From a virus: 10,175 nt of DNA. Each line of letters begins with the position of its first letter. Position 1 is the stretch's first letter. A model generated the notes under the pieces. The model saw nothing but the letters and a program-made list of their open reading frames with translations. It was not told the DNA's origin and ran no database searches. The DNA is taken from the UHGV virus genome UHGV-0126067, one strand, 5' to 3'. The position numbers and the translations under genes were made by a program. Shown piece by piece: positions 1,289 to 9,877 of this stretch.

Positions 1289-2185
1289 TTATTTTTTAGC
1301 TTTATTCTTCGCCGCTCGGTATGCGGTGTAATCACCGGTGGCGCGCGCTTTTTCGAGAAGTTTGTCGAGATTATTAATTGCAGCGCCATTGCTCCCTTTA
1401 ACCTCAGGAGTGGTAGCGGCTGTTGTTTTTGCTTTAGGCATGATTCTGGCCTTTGATTCGATACGTTCCAGCAGACGACCAATTGCTACGGGGTTGGTAG
1501 CTTCTGCCAGTTGCTTGCGCAGTTCAGCGTTGCGACCAAGCGCCAGAACAACGATTTCCGGCTTCTCTGACTCAAACAGGATCGAGTTTTGTGTCTCGAT
1601 GGGGATTTCCTCGAGTACGGCCTGCTCAGCTTCCTGATAGCCAGGAACTTTGAGAGCCTTAACACGTTGCTGATATTTGGATAATCGCTGTTGATAGGCA
1701 GCCTGAAGCTCCTGCTCCTTCTGCTTGCGAGCCATCTCCTGTTGCTGGTACTTGCCGTTATCCTCTGCCCACTTAGCCATGCGTTGCTGGTAGATTTCTT
1801 CATCGAAACCGATGTCCTCATCGTCCAGTTTTGGCATTCGCGGTGGTTGAGTGATTACCGGCTGCTGCTCGACGGGTTTCTGAGACTGACGCATCAGCTC
1901 TTTCAGCTCGCGGTCTTTCTCTTTAATCGTCTTGCGCAGGTGTTTTACCAGTCCATGCTCTGCGCTATCTTCGCTGGTTGGCGAATCCAGCTTTTCGTCA
2001 CCAAAGTAGAATTCCTGTTCTGATTCGTCGTCATCAGTTTCAGTAGCTTCCTCTGCATCATTGCCAGAGGACTCACTGCCATCTTCTGTTTCGACTTCTT
2101 CAGCCAGTTCGACATCATCAGGAATCTGCTCTGACGCGTCGGTTTCGATTTCAACTTCTGGTGTGTTTTCTGCCATCTGTTCCAT
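1289..2185 (-). CDS. Scaffolding protein (P22 gp8-like)
   Basis: 298 aa with a strongly acidic N-terminal third (DDVELAEEVETEDGSESSGNDAEEATETDDDESEQE), a Q/K/E-rich helical middle and a basic C-terminal segment (...GDYTAYRAAKNKAKK) resembling the coat-binding helix-turn-helix of P22 scaffold. Sits between portal and coat. RBS AGGGG lies upstream of ATG 2185. Confidence 0.8.
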   Translation of the reverse strand: MEQMAENTPEVEIETDASEQIPDDVELAEEVETEDGSESSGNDAEEATETDDDESEQEFYFGDEKLDSPTSEDSAEHGLVKHLRKTIKEKDRELKELMRQSQKPVEQQPVITQPPRMPKLDDEDIGFDEEIYQQRMAKWAEDNGKYQQQEMARKQKEQELQAAYQQRLSKYQQRVKALKVPGYQEAEQAVLEEIPIETQNSILFESEKPEIVVLALGRNAELRKQLAEATNPVAIGRLLERIESKARIMPKAKTTAATTPEVKGSNGAAINNLDKLLEKARATGDYTAYRAAKNKAKK

Positions 2186-2275: not shown

Positions 2276-4480
2276 TTACTGCTGTGGTTGTTGCTGAGTT
2301 GATTTTTGCAGGATGCTGCTGATGTCCATGCGCTGCGCATGGCCCTGTGCCTGACTTTTCAGGACAAGCTCTGCATCAGCACGGGCATTATCTCCTTGCT
2401 GTTGCTGGAACTGTCCGAGCAGTTTCAGCGCCTCACGGATATCAGATTTTTGCTGGCTATCGGCAGATGCGAGGATTTTCACAACATTTGCCGCAGCAAC
2501 CTGAGCATCCGTCTGTGCCTGGAATGCTTTAACCTGAATGGCTGCTTGTTCGTTCTGCGCTTTCTGCAATTCAGCCTGACCAGCAAGAAGCTGACCTTGC
2601 GCAGCAACCATAGCCGGATCTGGCTGACTGGCCTGTTGTTGTTTCGCCTGCTCAACCATCTGCTGTTCTTCTGGTGTTCTCGGCTTAATAACGCCAGACA
2701 GAAGCAACTGATTGCGGTTGTATTCTTTAAGGTCGTCCATCCCTTCGCCGTCCATATTGTCGAGAATCATCGACGATACAAGGTCATGCTTCGGCGTTCC
2801 TGGCGGGATAAGTGCCAGCATGGAAAGCAACGACTTAACCGTTGCATCACGGCGAGTAGCGAACGACTGACCGACATCGACAGTCACTTCATAGTTACCC
2901 TGCGAAAGGTCGTTAAGCGCGATAACCTTCCCTGTCTGACGGTCAACCACTTCACCAGTCATCAGCGCCACGTCATCGCTGCCATCCTCATTAACGATGC
3001 GCATTGGCGTATCGCTGCCATAGACTTCACGAGCCATAGAAAGCCACACGACGCCAGCACGGCGCATGGATTTAGCCATGTTGTCCATGTAGATATAGGA
3101 CTGCGTGTCCATCCGGTTAAAGATGCTATCAACGGTATCGGTAGCGACGTTGCTCGGCATGTTCTCAAGCTGCGACGCACCTGTAATTTGCTGAATAGCC
3201 GTTCCGGTGTACTGCAATAGCCCGGCAAGAGCAGGAGGCATTTGTGTCGGAGGTGTCCAGCCAGCAACCTGAGCCTCTGAAATGACCGTTCCGTTTTTGT
3301 CCTTCTTGCTGGTCATGGGAAGAACTGCAGGTCTTTTCTTATTCCTCTCTGCCCAGTGATTCATTAATGGACCGGGAATGAAATCAACATCCACGATAGG
3401 AATGCCATCACCGCCAGCCTGAGTAGCATTATCTGCAATCATGGAAACCATCAGGTTCTCAAGACGCTGTGCATCCATCGCTTTTGCTGCGTGGCCTTCG
3501 ATTCGCTCCTGATTATCAACAAATGAACGACGCCCATATACCGGGATGAGAGGAATATGTTCGCCCGGAATACGCTTCGGTTCTTCCAGCCATTCAGCGC
3601 CAGACAGAAGACCGCAATAAACTCGGCGTTTCTTCACCGTTCGCTCGCCAATCAGTTCGAATGCACCATCGGTCAGCTCGTCGACAATATCTTTGATTTG
3701 CTCTTCATCATAGATTGCCGTTTCTCCGCTGACAGGGTTACGCCATGCTGTGAGCTTCACCTTCTCTATGCGGACTTCGTAGTAGCGTCCAACATAGATG
3801 GCATCAGGCGTTGACCAGTCATATTGAGTACCAGTGTCATCACGAGAAAGACTTGCCGCGATGGAATCAGGGTATTCAGCCTCGAACGCTTTATGCGTCA
3901 TGGAGAACATTTCCATAGCCCACATAGCATCAGAGCGGTCATATTGCTTGCTGTCCTGATCGAAGAAAACGCATGTCGCTGGGTCGTAAACAGGAAGAAG
4001 GCTGATGCGTCGCTGCTCGTTACTCGGATCCATTTCATCTTCGTAATCGGCACACATGCGGAAACAACCGAATCCGCCCGTTACAGCATCATCAAATGCG
4101 TTATCACACGCTTCGCCACCGGATGTTTCCTGATAGTCAGCGCGGAATTTGCCGTTCATCTTTTCGGCTAACGCTTCCGATGCCTTATCGTCCTTAGGCC
4201 TGAATTTAACGCTGATGCGATTCTGTCGATACTCGCCAATGATGCGATCACATTCACGGGCAATCTTATTCAGTTCAAAGCGCGGGTAATGCTCAAACCT
4301 GCCTTCATCAAATGAGTAACCAGCGTTTGTGCTGCCTTCCCACTGTGCGCCGGACACCCGGACGAAACGTTGAGCCTCAATAATCTGCTCACGCATATCC
4401 TTCGTTGCTGACCAGGCATTATCAAAGTTGCACAGCACCTTGCGATGCCAGTCAGTCATCTTTCTATCATCAGCCATCAT
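2276..4480 (-). CDS. Portal protein (P22 gp1-like) with long helical C-terminal extension
   Basis: About 734 aa. Contains segments characteristic of P22-type portals as I recall them (GEHIPLIPVYG, KPRTPEEQQ, DPAMVAAQGQLLAGQAELQKAQNEQ) and a Q/A-rich C-terminus. The ORF track starts at a TTG (4492); I prefer ATG 4480, which overlaps the terminase TGA stop (ATGA). Confidence 0.93.
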   Translation of the reverse strand: MMADDRKMTDWHRKVLCNFDNAWSATKDMREQIIEAQRFVRVSGAQWEGSTNAGYSFDEGRFEHYPRFELNKIARECDRIIGEYRQNRISVKFRPKDDKASEALAEKMNGKFRADYQETSGGEACDNAFDDAVTGGFGCFRMCADYEDEMDPSNEQRRISLLPVYDPATCVFFDQDSKQYDRSDAMWAMEMFSMTHKAFEAEYPDSIAASLSRDDTGTQYDWSTPDAIYVGRYYEVRIEKVKLTAWRNPVSGETAIYDEEQIKDIVDELTDGAFELIGERTVKKRRVYCGLLSGAEWLEEPKRIPGEHIPLIPVYGRRSFVDNQERIEGHAAKAMDAQRLENLMVSMIADNATQAGGDGIPIVDVDFIPGPLMNHWAERNKKRPAVLPMTSKKDKNGTVISEAQVAGWTPPTQMPPALAGLLQYTGTAIQQITGASQLENMPSNVATDTVDSIFNRMDTQSYIYMDNMAKSMRRAGVVWLSMAREVYGSDTPMRIVNEDGSDDVALMTGEVVDRQTGKVIALNDLSQGNYEVTVDVGQSFATRRDATVKSLLSMLALIPPGTPKHDLVSSMILDNMDGEGMDDLKEYNRNQLLLSGVIKPRTPEEQQMVEQAKQQQASQPDPAMVAAQGQLLAGQAELQKAQNEQAAIQVKAFQAQTDAQVAAANVVKILASADSQQKSDIREALKLLGQFQQQQGDNARADAELVLKSQAQGHAQRMDISSILQKSTQQQPQQ

Positions 4481-5973
4481 CCAACTCCGCAAGGTATGTT
4501 GTAGCTTGAGTAATCAATCTCTTTAGGATCTTTGATGTCTCGCATCTGTATTGCAAAACGCCTCATCATGTAGCCATAGCGAACAGCAGAAAGGATGTCG
4601 TCATTTAGCTTGACGATCTTCCCGTTCTCATCGCGGTGATACAGACGAAACTCTTCAAAGAATGGCTCGCAGGTGTTAAATACCTTGAAACGACCGTCGA
4701 GCATCATGTCGCGTATCTCTGCTATCCCGGGTTCGACCGCATTACCTCCATCAGGCCATGTTGCATGATCTGGCAACATGTCGAACCCAGCTTCGGCGTA
4801 TTGTTCCTTGAGCTGAGCGCCGCCTCCCTTTTCGTGCTGATGCCCGTCATGAGGCCAAGCCGTAGGGGTGTTTTTGCTCCATGCTTTAACAGCACTCCAT
4901 GCCTCTGTCGCCTTCTTCTGTTTGGCCTTCCAGACGCGAGAAAGATAAATCACGTCCTCGTCTTTATCCCACCAAAGCTGGATATGTGCCTGTGGGTGAT
5001 CCCATCCGAAGTCCATTGCATTGATGACGTAGAAGTGATCAGGACACTCGAACGGCTGACACTTAATCGTCTCTTCCGGTATCTGGAAGATTCGACCGCT
5101 ACCCATCGTAGGAATACCGCGAGCACGCGCCTCTCTCTCGTGCTCGGGATAGGATGCGATGATTTGCTCTTTCTGCTCGTCGGTATAGTGCTCAGCATCA
5201 TAGATGGTCATGTTGACCACTTTCTGCGACTTGCTGGGATTCTTCAGGAACTTGGTAACAACGTCAGACATCCCCATCAGCGGGGTAAACGTCAGAATTG
5301 AGAATTGCCCGTATTTGTTGGTACGGGTAAGACCTTCGCCATAAATGCTGTATGGTGGCTCTTCGTCAAACCACACGCCGTGGATTGTGTCACCCTGCCA
5401 GCGAGCACGGCCTTGAGAGTATGGTTTGAAGTAGCAGATTGAAATGCCATCTTCAACGCCATCAGCCGTGTGATGCTTAACCAGAAGATGATCAACAAGG
5501 TTCGGAAAGAAAGGAGACTTCTTCCAGCTAATGATGTCCTCTTTCGGTATGGAACCGTAGCCAGGCTCGTCATTCTCTTCGATACGACCGCACAGGATGC
5601 GTTGAGTCGTTTTGGTTACAGTCTCGTTTGTCTCGCCACCAATCCAAAAGACAACAGGCTCATAGAAACGCTTACCTTTCCACTCACCGCCATATTTACC
5701 ATCAGCAGGATAGCCTTTTGTGCCCGGATAACGCCCTGTAAGGTGAAACGCGACTTCAGCAGCACCAGTAAATGACTTACCAAGCTGGTTACCAGCCATA
5801 AAACATCGCTCTGGATAGTCATGTCCGGCGTCGATGAACTCACGCTGTTTGCTGTATGGCGTAAATTCATATAGCAGGTGTGTGTTCCGGTAGTTCTCTT
5901 CTTCTTCGAGTAGCTCGAGCAATTCGATTTGCTCTTCGTCGCTCAGGTTATCAAGAATCGCGTCCAGTTCCAC
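4477..5973 (-). CDS. terL: Terminase large subunit (P22 gp2-like)
   Basis: 498 aa with a Walker A-like motif AGNQLGKS near the N-terminus. Sits between small terminase and portal. The start is GTG at 5973 (no in-frame ATG before the Walker A) with AAGGAG about 10 nt upstream. Overlaps the 3' end of terS by 23 nt. Confidence 0.93.
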
Positions 5974-6439
5974 GGTTGAATAGCTCCTTGATACGAGAGC
6001 GCCGCTTATCGCGATCTCCCTTATCAGGTGTCACGTCTTCAACTTGCGACTGCTCTTTGAGGCCCAAATCACGGGCGATGATGTTAGCGTTGAGAAGGTC
6101 AGCGGCTGCGCCAGAGAATTTCTGATCGTAGATGATGTCTTCCGCTCGTGATGTGACGTCAGAAAAACCTTCCATTGACCGGAAGGTTCCCCATGTTTGC
6201 CTGGTGATATCAAGGAAGGTACACAATCCTGAAATAGTCATGGCTCGCATCTTAGGGACATTAGCCTTAATTATTTCTCCCTGATATGAAAATACCTTGC
6301 CCTCCCATAGCGGGTTATCATCAGCCCACTCGAAGTATTCACAACAAGCAGCCCACAGCGCCTCAGGCGATTCGAATTTAGGGTTTCGCCCATGACTACT
6401 GCGGGCCTCCCAAAATCGGTTGCCCTTTGGTGCTGCCAT
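5951..6439 (-). CDS. terS: Terminase small subunit (P22 gp3-like)
   Basis: 162 aa from ATG 6439. The N-terminus [38 protein letters not shown] and C-terminus ...[13 protein letters not shown] match my recollection of P22 gp3. ATG 6439 is preferred over ATG 6445 because the GAG of the RBS abuts the upstream ATG. Confidence 0.88.
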
Positions 6440-6474
6440 ATCCATCTCACTTATTTGTTATTTCAGGTTGAGCA

Positions 6475-6717
6475 TCATGCTCCGGTGGTGAACAGGTCTA
6501 ACGCTTCCTTCGATTTACGTACCGCTTCGATAGTGCGGGTCGTGATATCTGAATTAGCGCCGCCTGACTGGAAGTGAATTTTGAATAGCTCAAGCTTCAA
6601 CTCGTCAGTACCAATGAACTGAAATGCTTCCTCTGCGGCTGCGTTCTGGTTCATGACCAGTTTGTAAATCTCTAACTGGAATTTCTGTTCTTCAGTCATG
6701 GGAATAATCTCTGCCAT
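6475..6717 (-). CDS. Small hypothetical protein (80 aa), possibly the P22 orf80 position
   Basis: 80-aa ORF immediately upstream of terS on the same strand, with GGAG 6 nt upstream of ATG 6717. No recognisable motif; function unknown. Confidence 0.6.
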   Translation of the reverse strand: MAEIIPMTEEQKFQLEIYKLVMNQNAAAEEAFQFIGTDELKLELFKIHFQSGGANSDITTRTIEAVRKSKEALDLFTTGA

Positions 6718-7719: not shown

Positions 7720-7745
7720 ATAAAAAAGCCCCGCTATTGCGAGGC
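7720..7745 (-). terminator. Rho-independent terminator-like hairpin overlapping the Rz1 stop codon
   Basis: Minus strand reads GCCTCGC-AATA-GCGGGGC (7-bp stem with one G.U) followed by TTTTTTAT. Confidence 0.5.
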
Positions 7746-8057
7746 TCGTGATGATTCGATTTTCCTGATTGCCGCCTTATCCAGATTGCACTGCCCTAGC
7801 GCCGTATAGAGCTGAGCGTTCAACTCCAGACTTGCCTGCCACGTGAACGGAACCGCCATTCCGGGGATCGGCGTGTCTGCTGTCAGGTCAGCGCTTATCG
7901 GCACCACTGGGGATGGAACGTAAACTGTCTGCGTATTCCCGCAAGCTGTCAGCAGCGGCAGAAGGAACAAGCTGGTTAGCACACGGATCGCCTTCAAGCG
8001 CCTGCCTGATGTAGACAATGCGCGTCTCGCCTTTTTTGGCCAGTTCGTTCTTTGCAT
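7734..8057 (-). CDS. Rz1: Rz1-like o-spanin lipoprotein, overlapping the 3' half of Rz in another frame and extending past its stop
   Basis: Lipobox LLTAC-G preceded by a hydrophobic stretch (VLTSLFLLPLL). The mature part is proline-rich (VYVPSPVVPISADLTADTPIPGMAVP) and has no Asp at +2. Start is uncertain: ATG 8057 gives a long n-region; an internal TTG at 7997, preceded by AGGCAGG, gives a textbook signal peptide MKAIRVLTSLFLLPLLTAC. Confidence 0.65.
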   Translation of the reverse strand: MQRTNWPKKARRALSTSGRRLKAIRVLTSLFLLPLLTACGNTQTVYVPSPVVPISADLTADTPIPGMAVPFTWQASLELNAQLYTALGQCNLDKAAIRKIESSRASQ

Positions 8058-8274
8058 TCTGGGTAGCCTGTGAGATGTCGCGGATGAGGTTCATCGTGGT
8101 GATCACGTTTCTGGTGATCGCCTCCGATGTGTCTGCCCTGACCGTCGCCTTATCGCGCTGGTCTTTGTAGGTGATGGCGTTGTCGCGGTAGTGGTTTACG
8201 AATAAAACCAGCACGCCGATTAACGCCAGCACCAGCAACTGTAGCCAGTAACGCTTAACCAGCGCGCCAATCAC
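7888..8274 (-). CDS. Rz: Rz-like i-spanin (128 aa) with N-terminal transmembrane segment
   Basis: N-terminal TMD (WLQLLVLALIGVLVLFV) followed by VNHYRDNAITYKDQRDK, which closely matches my recollection of lambda Rz (VNHYRDNAITYKAQRDK). GTG start at 8274 overlaps the endolysin TGA stop (GTGA). Confidence 0.8.
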   Translation of the reverse strand: MIGALVKRYWLQLLVLALIGVLVLFVNHYRDNAITYKDQRDKATVRADTSEAITRNVITTMNLIRDISQATQNAKNELAKKGETRIVYIRQALEGDPCANQLVPSAAADSLREYADSLRSIPSGADKR

Positions 8275-8711
8275 GACAGGAACAGAGCGCGCTCCGCCTC
8301 ACGCCGACGGGTCAGCCCATTCAGGACCTTGCCACCTGCTTTATTCCAGCGCAGGAACTCATCGGCTGCGCCAGCGTAATCACCGGCGTTGAGTTTTCGC
8401 AGGAGAGTCGATGTCGATAAAGATCGGGCTCCGAGGTTATAGGTGAACGACACCAGGGCGTCGAATTGCCCCTGAGTCAGACCAACTTTAACCAGGCGAG
8501 ACACGTCGCTTTCGTAGCTGACAAGTCCGGTCTTCAACAGGCGCTCTGCCGTTTCCTGATTAATTGTCATACCGGCACGGATCGGTTTACCGTCGACAGG
8601 CTGAGTCCAGCCATAGCCAATCGTCCACACTCCGACGCTGTCCTGGTACGCGGTAAGCTTGCAGCCTTCGAACTCTTTGATCAGGGCAATGCCTTTATCA
8701 CTGGTTTGCAT
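8271..8711 (-). CDS. Endolysin, T4-lysozyme-type muramidase (P22 gp19-like)
   Basis: 146 aa. Catalytic E/D/T spacing of T4-type lysozymes (EFEGCKLTAYQDSVGVWTIGYG). C-terminus RRREAERALFLS resembles the P22 gp19 C-terminus as I recall it. Follows the holin with a 14-nt overlap. Confidence 0.9.
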   Translation of the reverse strand: MQTSDKGIALIKEFEGCKLTAYQDSVGVWTIGYGWTQPVDGKPIRAGMTINQETAERLLKTGLVSYESDVSRLVKVGLTQGQFDALVSFTYNLGARSLSTSTLLRKLNAGDYAGAADEFLRWNKAGGKVLNGLTRRREAERALFLS

Positions 8712-9015
8712 TCTTCATCCCCGTCAGACGTTCCCAGAAATAGGTCAGAGCCACGGAGCCCATCGCCCCGCTAATGCCTGACGTAACCAGAATCATGTAA
8801 AGGCTCAGCCCACTTTCAACGCTGATCAGTCCACCAATGAGACCGGTAAAGCCGGACACTGCAATTTGTGCCAGCGCATTAATCCAGCTCCAGGTGGCTT
8901 TGTTCTGCTTAACGTCAATAAGGTATCGGACCAGGCCGCCCCAGCATGACAGAGCAAGGACAATCAGCCATGACACTCCGGCAATGCTTTCTTTATCTTG
9001 CATACGTTTAGCCAT
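8698..9015 (-). CDS. Holin, class I (three predicted TMDs), possible dual-start holin/antiholin
   Basis: 105 aa with three hydrophobic segments (SIAGVSWLIVLALSCWGGLV; WSWINALAQIAVSGFTGLIGGLI; LSLYMILVTSGISGAMGSVALTYF) and a charged C-terminal tail. N-terminus is M-A-K-R-M. Strong SD GGAGGTGA sits immediately upstream of ATG 9015. First gene of the lysis cassette. Confidence 0.8.
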   Translation of the reverse strand: MAKRMQDKESIAGVSWLIVLALSCWGGLVRYLIDVKQNKATWSWINALAQIAVSGFTGLIGGLISVESGLSLYMILVTSGISGAMGSVALTYFWERLTGMKNANQ

Positions 9016-9137
9016 ATCACCTCCGAAAGAACGGGGTGCTGTTTGTAGTAAGGGATCAGGCCCTCGGGACGATTTAACAAGAAGGCATGTCGATGATGGT
9101 TCCCGGGACCTTAATATTTACCTCAAAGAGGCATATT

Positions 9138-9734
9138 TTAATTTTGGCAGCGTGGTTGGCTCACTTTGAGAGACTCGATCTTCTTGATAAGCCCTCTGTG
9201 GAGCTGTGGATGCAACTGATCGCAGAGACTCTTATAGCCATGCGCAAGACTCATTTTTTCATTGAACCAAGCGAGATGGGCAAGGTATGGGTCTTCGAAC
9301 ATACCTAAATGCTTGTTCTTACCATTAACCTTTATATCGGCCTGAAATTTTGTTGAGCCTTTTTTTAGGCAAACGCCAATGGGATAATCACCCCTCCGAG
9401 CACCCCTTGAGGTAACAAAGCTATTGAGCGCCTGCGGGATAAAGATGCATGTTTTACTGGAATAAACTTTGTTACCGGGGAAAAGGAGATCCTTATCAAG
9501 CTCACACCCAGGAATGTATTTCGCGTCGTAAAACTTTTTAAATTCGCTAAAAAGATGCCACTCTTCATCAACAACACATCCTTCATAGCTAGGCCTGTAA
9601 CAGACCCCCTCCCCATAACATCTCTTAAGCATCCCATGCCAAACTCTATATGCTCTTATTTTCTTCCCATCCACAAAAACAGGATGCACATCTAACTTTC
9701 CAACTCCGAAAATAAGACTTTCATTTGATTTCAT
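9138..9734 (-). CDS. Accessory (moron-type) protein, 198 aa, with AP2-like C-terminal signature; function unknown
   Basis: ATG at 9734 (MKSNESLIFGVGKLDVHPVF...) with AAAGG upstream; the ORF-track start at 9821 is a TTG inside an inverted repeat. GC is visibly lower than in flanking genes. C-terminal segment GVCLKKGSTKFQADIKVNGKNKHLGMFEDPYLAHLAWF fits an AP2-type pattern. N-terminal domain is Cys/Trp-rich (WHGMLKRCY...CVVDEEWHLFSEF) and unassigned. Confidence 0.65.
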   Translation of the reverse strand: MKSNESLIFGVGKLDVHPVFVDGKKIRAYRVWHGMLKRCYGEGVCYRPSYEGCVVDEEWHLFSEFKKFYDAKYIPGCELDKDLLFPGNKVYSSKTCIFIPQALNSFVTSRGARRGDYPIGVCLKKGSTKFQADIKVNGKNKHLGMFEDPYLAHLAWFNEKMSLAHGYKSLCDQLHPQLHRGLIKKIESLKVSQPRCQN

Positions 9735-9750
9735 GGTTGCGTTTACCTTT

Positions 9751-9837
9751 CTTTGAAATGAACCTTTGCCGCAATGGAAATCAGCCCGTCGAGGCTCGCC
9801 AGCACTAACTGACTTCCTCAAAGGCTCATTTCAAAGG
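9751..9837. repeat. 18-19 bp inverted repeat (arms 9751-9768 and 9819-9837) in the leader of the accessory ORF
   Basis: Plus-strand arm ctttgaaatgaacctttg against the reverse complement of caaaggctcatttcaaagg: one DNA mismatch, which is a G.U pair in the minus-strand RNA. A 50-nt spacer holds a small inner hairpin (AGCC-TCGACG-GGCT). Confidence 0.75.
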
Positions 9838-9877
9838 GTGTGGTTCGACGTGGTTAGAGGCGCATTGCGGTGCGCTG

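Follow-up and report, generated by a model that had tools for sequence, protein, structure and literature searches.

The viral genome UHGV-0126067, a stretch of 10,175 nucleotides (nt) referred to here as the window, carries on its minus strand a holin gene whose reading frame opens with two methionine codons, ATG1 and ATG5 (Table 1). The reverse complement of positions 9015..9001 reads ATG GCT AAA CGT ATG, i.e. M-A-K-R-M, with the two ATGs in frame and 12 nt apart. A strong Shine-Dalgarno (SD) sequence stands directly in front of ATG1 and forms the 3' arm of a predicted hairpin. An original prediction had pointed to this motif as a possible antiholin/holin dual start resembling the S107/S105 pair of phage lambda. 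Its two in-frame ATGs are borne out on the minus strand, which it had left unstated, and so is the gain of a lysine and an arginine (K3 and R4) by the longer product ahead of the first transmembrane domain (TMD1), by which the N-terminal net charge changes from -1 to +1. Based on a comparison of related sequences, and with odds that we put at about two in three, we propose that both starts are used, that the products are a 105-amino-acid (aa) antiholin and a 101-aa holin, and that the hairpin sets their ratio.

The holin gene and its initiation region

The open reading frame (ORF) beginning at ATG1 matches the Pfam family PF16083 (Phage_holin_3_3) with an E-value of 2e-21 and 76.3 bits (cut-off 28.4) over profile positions 1-78 of 78, and PHROG 785 'holin' with an E-value of 3.5e-39. 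By these profile matches it is a holin of the LydA/PS3-gp13 family, holin superfamily III. The assignment agrees with what characterizes PF16083-type holins, as the 105-aa product is a small membrane protein whose helices are hydrophobic and whose C-terminus carries charge, and its gene adjoins that of an endolysin. The protein is 100% identical to the products of prophage genes of Citrobacter and Enterobacter.

The sequence directly upstream of ATG1 is CGGAGGUGAU, in which a 9-nt SD run, GGAGGTGAT, abuts the start codon. All 9 nt of the stretch GGAGGUGAU are complementary to the 3' end of 16S rRNA, with a duplex energy of -13.8 to -16.1 kcal/mol (-16.1 for the full run). The expectation of a single strong SD just before ATG1 is thus confirmed, with GGAGGTGA at 9024-9017, and its spacing is indeed short for the first start and long for the second: 4 nt separate the GGAGG core from ATG1 and 16 nt separate it from ATG5.

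It had also been suggested that RNA folding of this region be used to look for a start-selection structure like the lambda sdi (structure-directed initiation) element. Such a hairpin is predicted, is conserved and shows some compensatory change. When positions 8995-9045 of the minus strand are folded, the hairpin 9038-9018 is both the minimum free energy structure and the centroid, with an ensemble frequency of 0.84, and its 3' arm is the SD. The hairpin alone has an energy of -9.0 kcal/mol, compared with -8.7 kcal/mol for lambda sdi, AUCCCC[UUAUU]GGGGGU. The distance from its base is 2 nt to ATG1 and 14 nt to ATG5. A second predicted hairpin, AUAUG/CGUAU, would pair AUG1 with codon 4 over 5 base pairs; it is weak (-1.8 kcal/mol) and impossible in relatives starting with MKRM or MRM, and we discarded it as a conserved element.

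A second methionine near the N-terminus is also found in other ORFs of the window, namely 5951..6445 (MDM), 1289..2185 (MEQM), 6475..6717 (MAEIIPM) and 2276..4492 (MRSWMM). Because early in-frame methionines recur in this way, a dual ATG in a single sequence does not rise above chance, and it is the comparison with relatives, not the lone sequence, that makes the dual start appear convincing.

Conservation among related loci

A megablast search with the holin region gave no match in the phage collection, and the relatives came from a protein-mode search. A scan of viral_contigs yielded only proteins 98-100% identical to the holin and served to compare loop with arm variation, not to sample diversity.

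In an alignment of 12 diverse loci (A1), Met5 is the sole invariant residue of the N-terminal tail while its neighbours vary. The single-start relatives from Erwinia tracheiphila (L012) and Yersinia (L023) begin exactly at the Met5 column. The second methionine is kept in every relative that reaches this position, and replacement by Leu, Ile or Val occurs in 0/120 cluster representatives. At 30-50% identity, the more distant members of the family usually have just one start, and P-x-K/R-D-P comes after it (MPDKDP, MPSKDP, MPEKDL).

The extension ahead of Met5 takes the forms MAKRM, MKRM, MRM, MKM, MAKNM, MATRM, MANRM, MAKHM, MAKCM, MKNM, MDKRM and MTRM, so that the ATG-ATG distance is always 6, 9 or 12 nt, corresponding to 1, 2 or 3 codons in frame. 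A lysine or arginine lies between the two methionines in 85/91 cluster representatives with an extension, as parsed. In four of the six parses lacking one, the gene call begins too far upstream (MGVE-MKRM, MGWN-MRM) and the true extension does contain K/R; correcting them raises the count to 89/91. Acidic residues are nearly absent from the extension. Alanine, lysine and arginine are encoded by synonymous codons in the relatives (GCT/GCA, AAA/AAG, CGT/CGA/AGA, with CGC in Xenorhabdus L021). Since the residues are kept through synonymous changes, the extension behaves as translated sequence.

These observations bear on a reading in which only ATG5 is used and ATG1 with the next three codons belongs to the 5' leader, ATG1 being too near the SD and hairpin to serve as a start. 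In its favour, no more than 1-4 nt separate SD and ATG1 in the window lineage, ATG1 follows the end of the hairpin after 2 nt, and 26/120 cluster representatives, mostly from NCBI/PGAP, are annotated from the second methionine (101 aa), most others being annotated from the first (105 aa). Against exclusive use of ATG5, the upstream ATG is always in frame, length differences amount to whole codons, the basic residues are maintained by synonymous codons as expected of translated sequence, and several lineages have an SD best spaced for ATG1, at 5-8 nt. We regard it as very improbable.

The gene calls are further complicated in Xenorhabdus prophages. In L018 (2983-3003), L019 and L021 the SD arm of the hairpin contains a third in-frame ATG (ATG GGG TGG AAT ATG CGT ATG), and for this reason some gene callers yield MGWNMRM... 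products. No SD precedes this third ATG.

The hairpin is conserved along with the two starts. Among more than 50 loci encoding a near-identical protein both arms are invariant, while the loop (UUCUUU, UUUUU, UUAUU, UUCCUU, UUAAUU, UAUAA and others) and the 5' flank vary. In an alignment of 16 sequences, standard pairs occupy 93.8% of the cells, as opposed to 31-56% when the 3' partners are slid, and compensatory double changes are seen at two pairs (CCG/CGG to CGC/GCG). A hairpin that pairs the SD is present in 16/16 dual-start lineages, with 2-7 nt between its end and the first AUG and 10-19 nt between its end and the second. The arms themselves differ between lineages: GCUUCC/GGAGGC in Klebsiella RAH1, CUCCG/CGGAG in L109, CCAACG/CGUUGG in L110, CACCCCA/UGGGGUG in Xenorhabdus and CCCC/GGGG in Serratia, Erwinia and Hafnia. 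Salmonella phage MS2 LVA, whose protein is 46% identical and starts MTRM, has CCUCC/GGAGG. Of the single-start relatives, Erwinia tracheiphila L012 gives an ambiguous picture, and no SD hairpin was found in those from Vibrio, Alteromonas and Yersinia.

Start selection and the function of the two products

Use of both starts, inhibition by the long form, an N-out topology and selection between an open and a closed hairpin are what we infer here rather than observe. Initiation at ATG5 would yield the 101-aa active holin, and initiation at ATG1 a 105-aa form in which K3 and R4 turn the N-terminal tail from negative to positive. As with lambda S107, these two residues would hinder the N-terminus or TMD1 from crossing the energized membrane. 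In this role of antiholin the long form would postpone triggering, and it would turn into active holin upon membrane depolarization. The hairpin that buries the SD would determine how initiation is divided between the two starts. With the hairpin open, the SD, 3-4 nt from ATG1, would steer the ribosome to this codon. With the hairpin closed, its base 2 nt from ATG1 would block placement of ATG1 in the P-site, and ATG5, 14 nt away in an A-rich unstructured stretch, could be reached without an SD.

Several results weigh against the use of both starts under control of the hairpin. A separate SD for ATG5, comparable to the UAAG of lambda, is not found: the 12 nt before ATG5 are AUGGCUAAACGU, without an SD-like run. 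The sole SD lies 15-16 nt from ATG5, with no SD-like element 5-10 nt before this codon. A Salis-type spacing penalty amounts to 7.2 kcal/mol for ATG5 and 1.5 kcal/mol for ATG1; the calculation was limited to the spacing terms and the energy of the hairpin, as a start ratio in the style of a ribosome-binding-site calculator was judged too unreliable. In Klebsiella RAH1, L110 and L114 the SD is well spaced for ATG1, which leaves ATG5 17-20 nt off. A conserved intragenic stem-loop is absent from the RNAalifold consensus of 16 lineages (-0.19 kcal/mol). Both compensatory pairs in the upstream hairpin come from one sequence, L113. To see whether the upstream flank has evolved to pair with the SD, this flank alone was shuffled. 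Pairing of the SD at least as extensive as observed is reached by a fraction of 0.09 of the shuffles for the window and of 0.01-0.98 across lineages; the test has little power, since a G-rich SD finds a partner in shuffled C-rich flanks in about 70% of cases. Rare relatives have a genuinely uncharged extension (MAIHM, MPM). Finally, the topology is uncertain: an AlphaFold 2 (AF2) model from 33 sequences, with three helices at 3-36, 43-67 and 72-98, has low confidence (mean predicted local distance difference test, pLDDT, of 64.8), and two transmembrane helices are predicted for the related P1 LydA (PMC9025707) and, using TMHMM, for Burkholderia phage JC1 gp72 (PMC9144972).

The spacing data would fit use of ATG1 alone, giving a single 105-aa holin in which Met5 is a conserved residue or the relic of an ancestral start. 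A very strong SD abuts ATG1, ATG5 without an SD of its own stands 15-20 nt from the one present, and most gene callers other than PGAP choose the first ATG. Yet Met5 is invariant in a tail that otherwise varies freely and corresponds to the start of single-start relatives; a relic methionine should have given way to Leu, Ile or Val in some of the 120 representatives, and in none has it done so. In addition, the homologous lambda region uses both starts, and the SD-ATG1 spacing of 3-4 nt itself falls short of the optimum. Exclusive initiation at ATG1 therefore appears unlikely to us.

The shuffling result raises the question of whether the inverted repeat at 9018-9038 has a role in translation at all. 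It could be a chance complement of SD and anti-SD, given that G-rich SDs pair C-rich leaders in such a large share of shuffles, or an antisense terminator, as a consensus scan scores the complement of the hairpin, on the plus strand at 9021-9036, as weakly terminator-like. This plus-strand site is probably incidental, and its T-tract, TGCTGTTTGT, is poor. Moreover, the hairpin always includes the SD, even where the arms differ completely, it was found in every dual-start lineage examined but in no single-start relative from Vibrio, Alteromonas or Yersinia, and it matches the experimentally defined upstream stem-loop of lambda in position and stability. We consider it extremely improbable that the repeat has no part in translation.

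Hydropathy analysis of the holin identifies three hydrophobic segments, at about 11-29, 43-65 and 70-94, followed by the C-terminus ERLTGMKNANQ. The net charges are -1 (short form) or +1 (long form) for the N-terminal tail, +2 for loop 1, -1 for loop 2 and +1 for the C-terminus. Hydropathy and the positive-inside rule fit three TMDs with the N-terminus out and the C-terminus in, as in lambda S, although the topology is uncertain. Whichever topology holds, in the cases that have been studied, S107 and S21-71, it is an added N-terminal positive charge that makes the antiholin (PMC9636201).

Both starts might also be used without yielding a holin/antiholin pair, the long form being a slower or equivalent isoform, or the roles being reversed. 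Antagonism between the long and the short form is a proposal, the topology is uncertain, a few relatives carry an uncharged extension, and for TcdE it is the shorter form that has been proposed to be inhibitory (PMC3369941). On the other side, the extension is nearly always basic and hardly ever acidic, which matches the charge logic demonstrated by experiment for lambda S107 and S21-71 (PMC9636201). We find a pair lacking antagonism distinctly improbable and prefer the assignment of the long form as antiholin and the short form as holin.

The lysis cassette and its surroundings

The window is the late region of a P22-like prophage. On the same strand the holin gene is followed by the genes for the endolysin, Rz and Rz1 and then by KilA-N/ORF11CD3, DUF2560 and small terminase gp3 (Table 1). 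We take ORFs 4477..5973 and 2276..4492 to be the large-terminase and portal genes, going by their position, their size and what their sequences look like. The holin stop codon (8700-8698) lies downstream of the endolysin start (8711-8709), giving a 14-nt overlap that suggests translational coupling of the two genes. The spanin pair has an overlapped architecture in which the Rz1/LysC-like ORF begins within Rz and extends about 150 nt beyond the Rz stop.

Table 1. Features of the holin initiation region and the lysis cassette in the window.
Feature	Position	Strand	Description
Holin gene, long form	8698..9015	-	105 aa, MAKRMQDKES..., stop codon included; from the ORF list
Holin gene, short form	8698..9003	-	101 aa, MQDKES..., from ATG5
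ATG1, upstream start codon	9013..9015	-	From the sequence; in frame in all dual-start lineages
Extension codons GCT AAA CGT (A-K-R)	9004..9012	-	Two positive charges ahead of TMD1
ATG5, downstream start codon	9001..9003	-	From the sequence; invariant across the family
Shine-Dalgarno GGAGGUGA	9017..9024	-	From the sequence; with U9016, 9-nt complement to the 16S 3' end
SD-sequestering hairpin, sdi-like (predicted)	9018..9038	-	5' arm CACCCCG 9038-9032, loop UUCUUU 9031-9026, 3' arm CGG-A-GGUG 9025-9018
Conserved holin leader, about 100 nt	9016..9117	-	Common to related prophages whatever lies upstream; blastn against the fetched loci, upstream sequence classes
Endolysin (phage lysozyme)	8271..8711	-	Pfam PF00959, E 1.3e-50; PHROG 7
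Rz-like i-spanin	7888..8274	-	PHROG 214, E 1.5e-34
Rz1/LysC-like o-spanin lipoprotein ORF	7734..8057	-	Pfam PF23793 LysC, E 5.9e-14; PHROG 456

Upstream of the conserved holin leader, positions 9118-9874 constitute an insertion of about 757 base pairs relative to some 40 related prophage loci, in which the equivalent of 9875 adjoins 9111-9117. The insertion carries an HNH (homing) endonuclease-like ORF, 9138..9821 on the minus strand (PHROG 953, E 3e-71), whose start is probably the internal ATG at 9734. It is located between a terminator-like hairpin (9904-9888) and the holin leader, and leaves the SD hairpin and the dual start undisturbed. The minus strand contains two strong hairpins with T-tracts resembling intrinsic terminators, at 10155-10128 and 9904-9888, both upstream of the lysis cassette. 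These are probably late-leader terminators that are read through by a Q-type antiterminator; the late promoter and the Q gene would lie beyond the limits of the window. No Rfam family was detected in the window at gathering thresholds, and no tRNA was detected by ARAGORN.

Comparison with lambda S and other holins

Dual-start holins are a classical lysis-timing device of the lambdoid phages. The closest named counterparts of the window gene are gp13 of Salmonella phages PS3, ST64T, L and ST160 (Lederbergvirus), which are 86-87% identical and share MAKRM, the hairpin arms, the SD and the gene order holin, endolysin, Rz. They differ in having NDDHK in place of QDKES after Met5, in a few further residues and in the loop sequence. 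Their records list a single coding sequence (CDS) and do not mention a dual start. The holin of Serratia phage Eta (Eta_0046) belongs to the same family (70% identity) and has an SD hairpin with arms CCCC/GGGG; its GenBank note reads 'possible dual start motif'. It begins with M-K-R-M, lacking the alanine codon, and its initiation region is still lambda-like. Our literature search found no experimental work on a dual start in this PS3-gp13/LydA holin subfamily.

The gp13 protein of phage P22 begins MKKM. Both P22 gp13 and S21 of phage 21 (S21-71/S21-68) follow the same dual-start logic, in which a positive charge on the longer form produces the antiholin (PMC9636201). Neither is a member of the LydA family: S21 is a pinholin with two TMDs that works with a signal-anchor-release (SAR) endolysin, and P22 gp13 is a protein of the lambda S family. 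Phage P1 LydA, which gives its name to the family and shares PF16083 with the window holin, acts as a canonical holin and has a separate antiholin, LydB (PMC9025707). The two systems thus differ in the origin of the antiholin, which in P1 is the separate gene lydB and in the window would be the dual start. A lydB-like gene after the holin is absent from the window, with neither an ORF nor a Pfam match between holin and endolysin, the two genes overlapping by 14 nt.

In lambda S, a GGGGG SD serves Met1, an upstream stem-loop controls its access, a UAAG SD serves Met3, and an intragenic stem-loop is present, the antiholin:holin ratio being 1:2 (bioRxiv 10.1101/2025.05.14.654169; PMC3369941). The window resembles this arrangement in several ways. 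Two in-frame AUGs enclose one or more basic residues, and just upstream a hairpin of about -9 kcal/mol carries the SD of the first start in its 3' arm. The gene opens the late lysis cassette, and its charge and hydropathy would fit three TMDs with the N-terminus out. It differs in that the starts are 12 nt apart (M-A-K-R-M, +2) rather than 6 nt (M-K-M, +1), and in that one very strong SD abuts ATG1, with neither a second SD of the UAAG type nor a conserved intragenic stem-loop.

The likeness extends to nucleotide sequence in some members of the family. The lambda S initiation region (hairpin, SD and AUG AAG AUG CCA GAA AAA) is identical to that of a Serratia prophage (L106) at 36/43 nt, with a z score of 9.3 against shuffles; the z scores are 8.0 for Erwinia mediterraneensis (L013) and 6.6 for Serratia phage Eta (L004). 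The stretches compared were about 84-124 of L116 (lambda NC_001416 45080-45560), 565-640 of L106, 2962-3040 of L013 and 1462-1540 of L004. The window's own initiation region has no significant similarity to that of lambda S (z of -0.2). It is plainly homologous to that of Eta, with AAA CGT ATG CAA GAY AAA GAR AGC AT in common, and is tied to the lambda-like initiation regions through the protein family and the sequence shared with Eta, AAACGTATGCAAGAYAAAGARAGCAT. At the protein level, homology of the holin to lambda S was not detected by BLASTP (E 0.15) or hhalign (probability 0.2%). Serratia MKMPDKDP mirrors MKMPEKHD of lambda S107, and the MP-x-K/R-D-P starts of the distant family members resemble MPEKHD of S105. 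The earlier likening to S107/S105 is thus strengthened by the invariance of Met5, the in-frame basic extension, the hairpin, and the nucleotide similarity of the Serratia and Erwinia regions to lambda S.

Similar initiation regions in the lambda and LydA families without detectable protein homology suggest a regulatory cassette that is shared or exchanged at the 5' edge of the holin gene, or else a deeply conserved remnant. A bolder version, tentative and in our view rather doubtful, is that hairpin and dual start form a modular cassette kept or recombined across holin bodies without detectable homology (lambda S, LydA/PS3-gp13), and that the window version would work as a two-state switch: SD-directed initiation at ATG1 to give antiholin when open, and SD-independent initiation at ATG5 to give holin when closed, unlike lambda with its two SDs.

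The present comparison makes two modest additions: an sdi-like hairpin conserved across the family, and a short stretch over which the initiation regions of lambda S and LydA-type holins resemble each other in nucleotide sequence. Conservation of the dual-start motif and its SD hairpin among the enterobacterial PS3-gp13/LydA-type holins carries the paradigm to a second protein family, which is common in prophages of Salmonella, Enterobacter, Klebsiella, Serratia and Xenorhabdus. It also explains why annotation pipelines disagree on the holin start (101 or 105 aa); both CDSs probably merit annotation, as for lambda S and S'. The relatives offer natural variants in which start partition and lysis time could be studied, with ATG-ATG spacings of 6, 9 and 12 nt, an added charge of +1 or +2 and an SD 1-6 nt from ATG1. 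Taken together, the dual start and SD hairpin of the window are a conserved variant of the lambda S107/S105 arrangement, real but ordinary, and involve no new mechanism.

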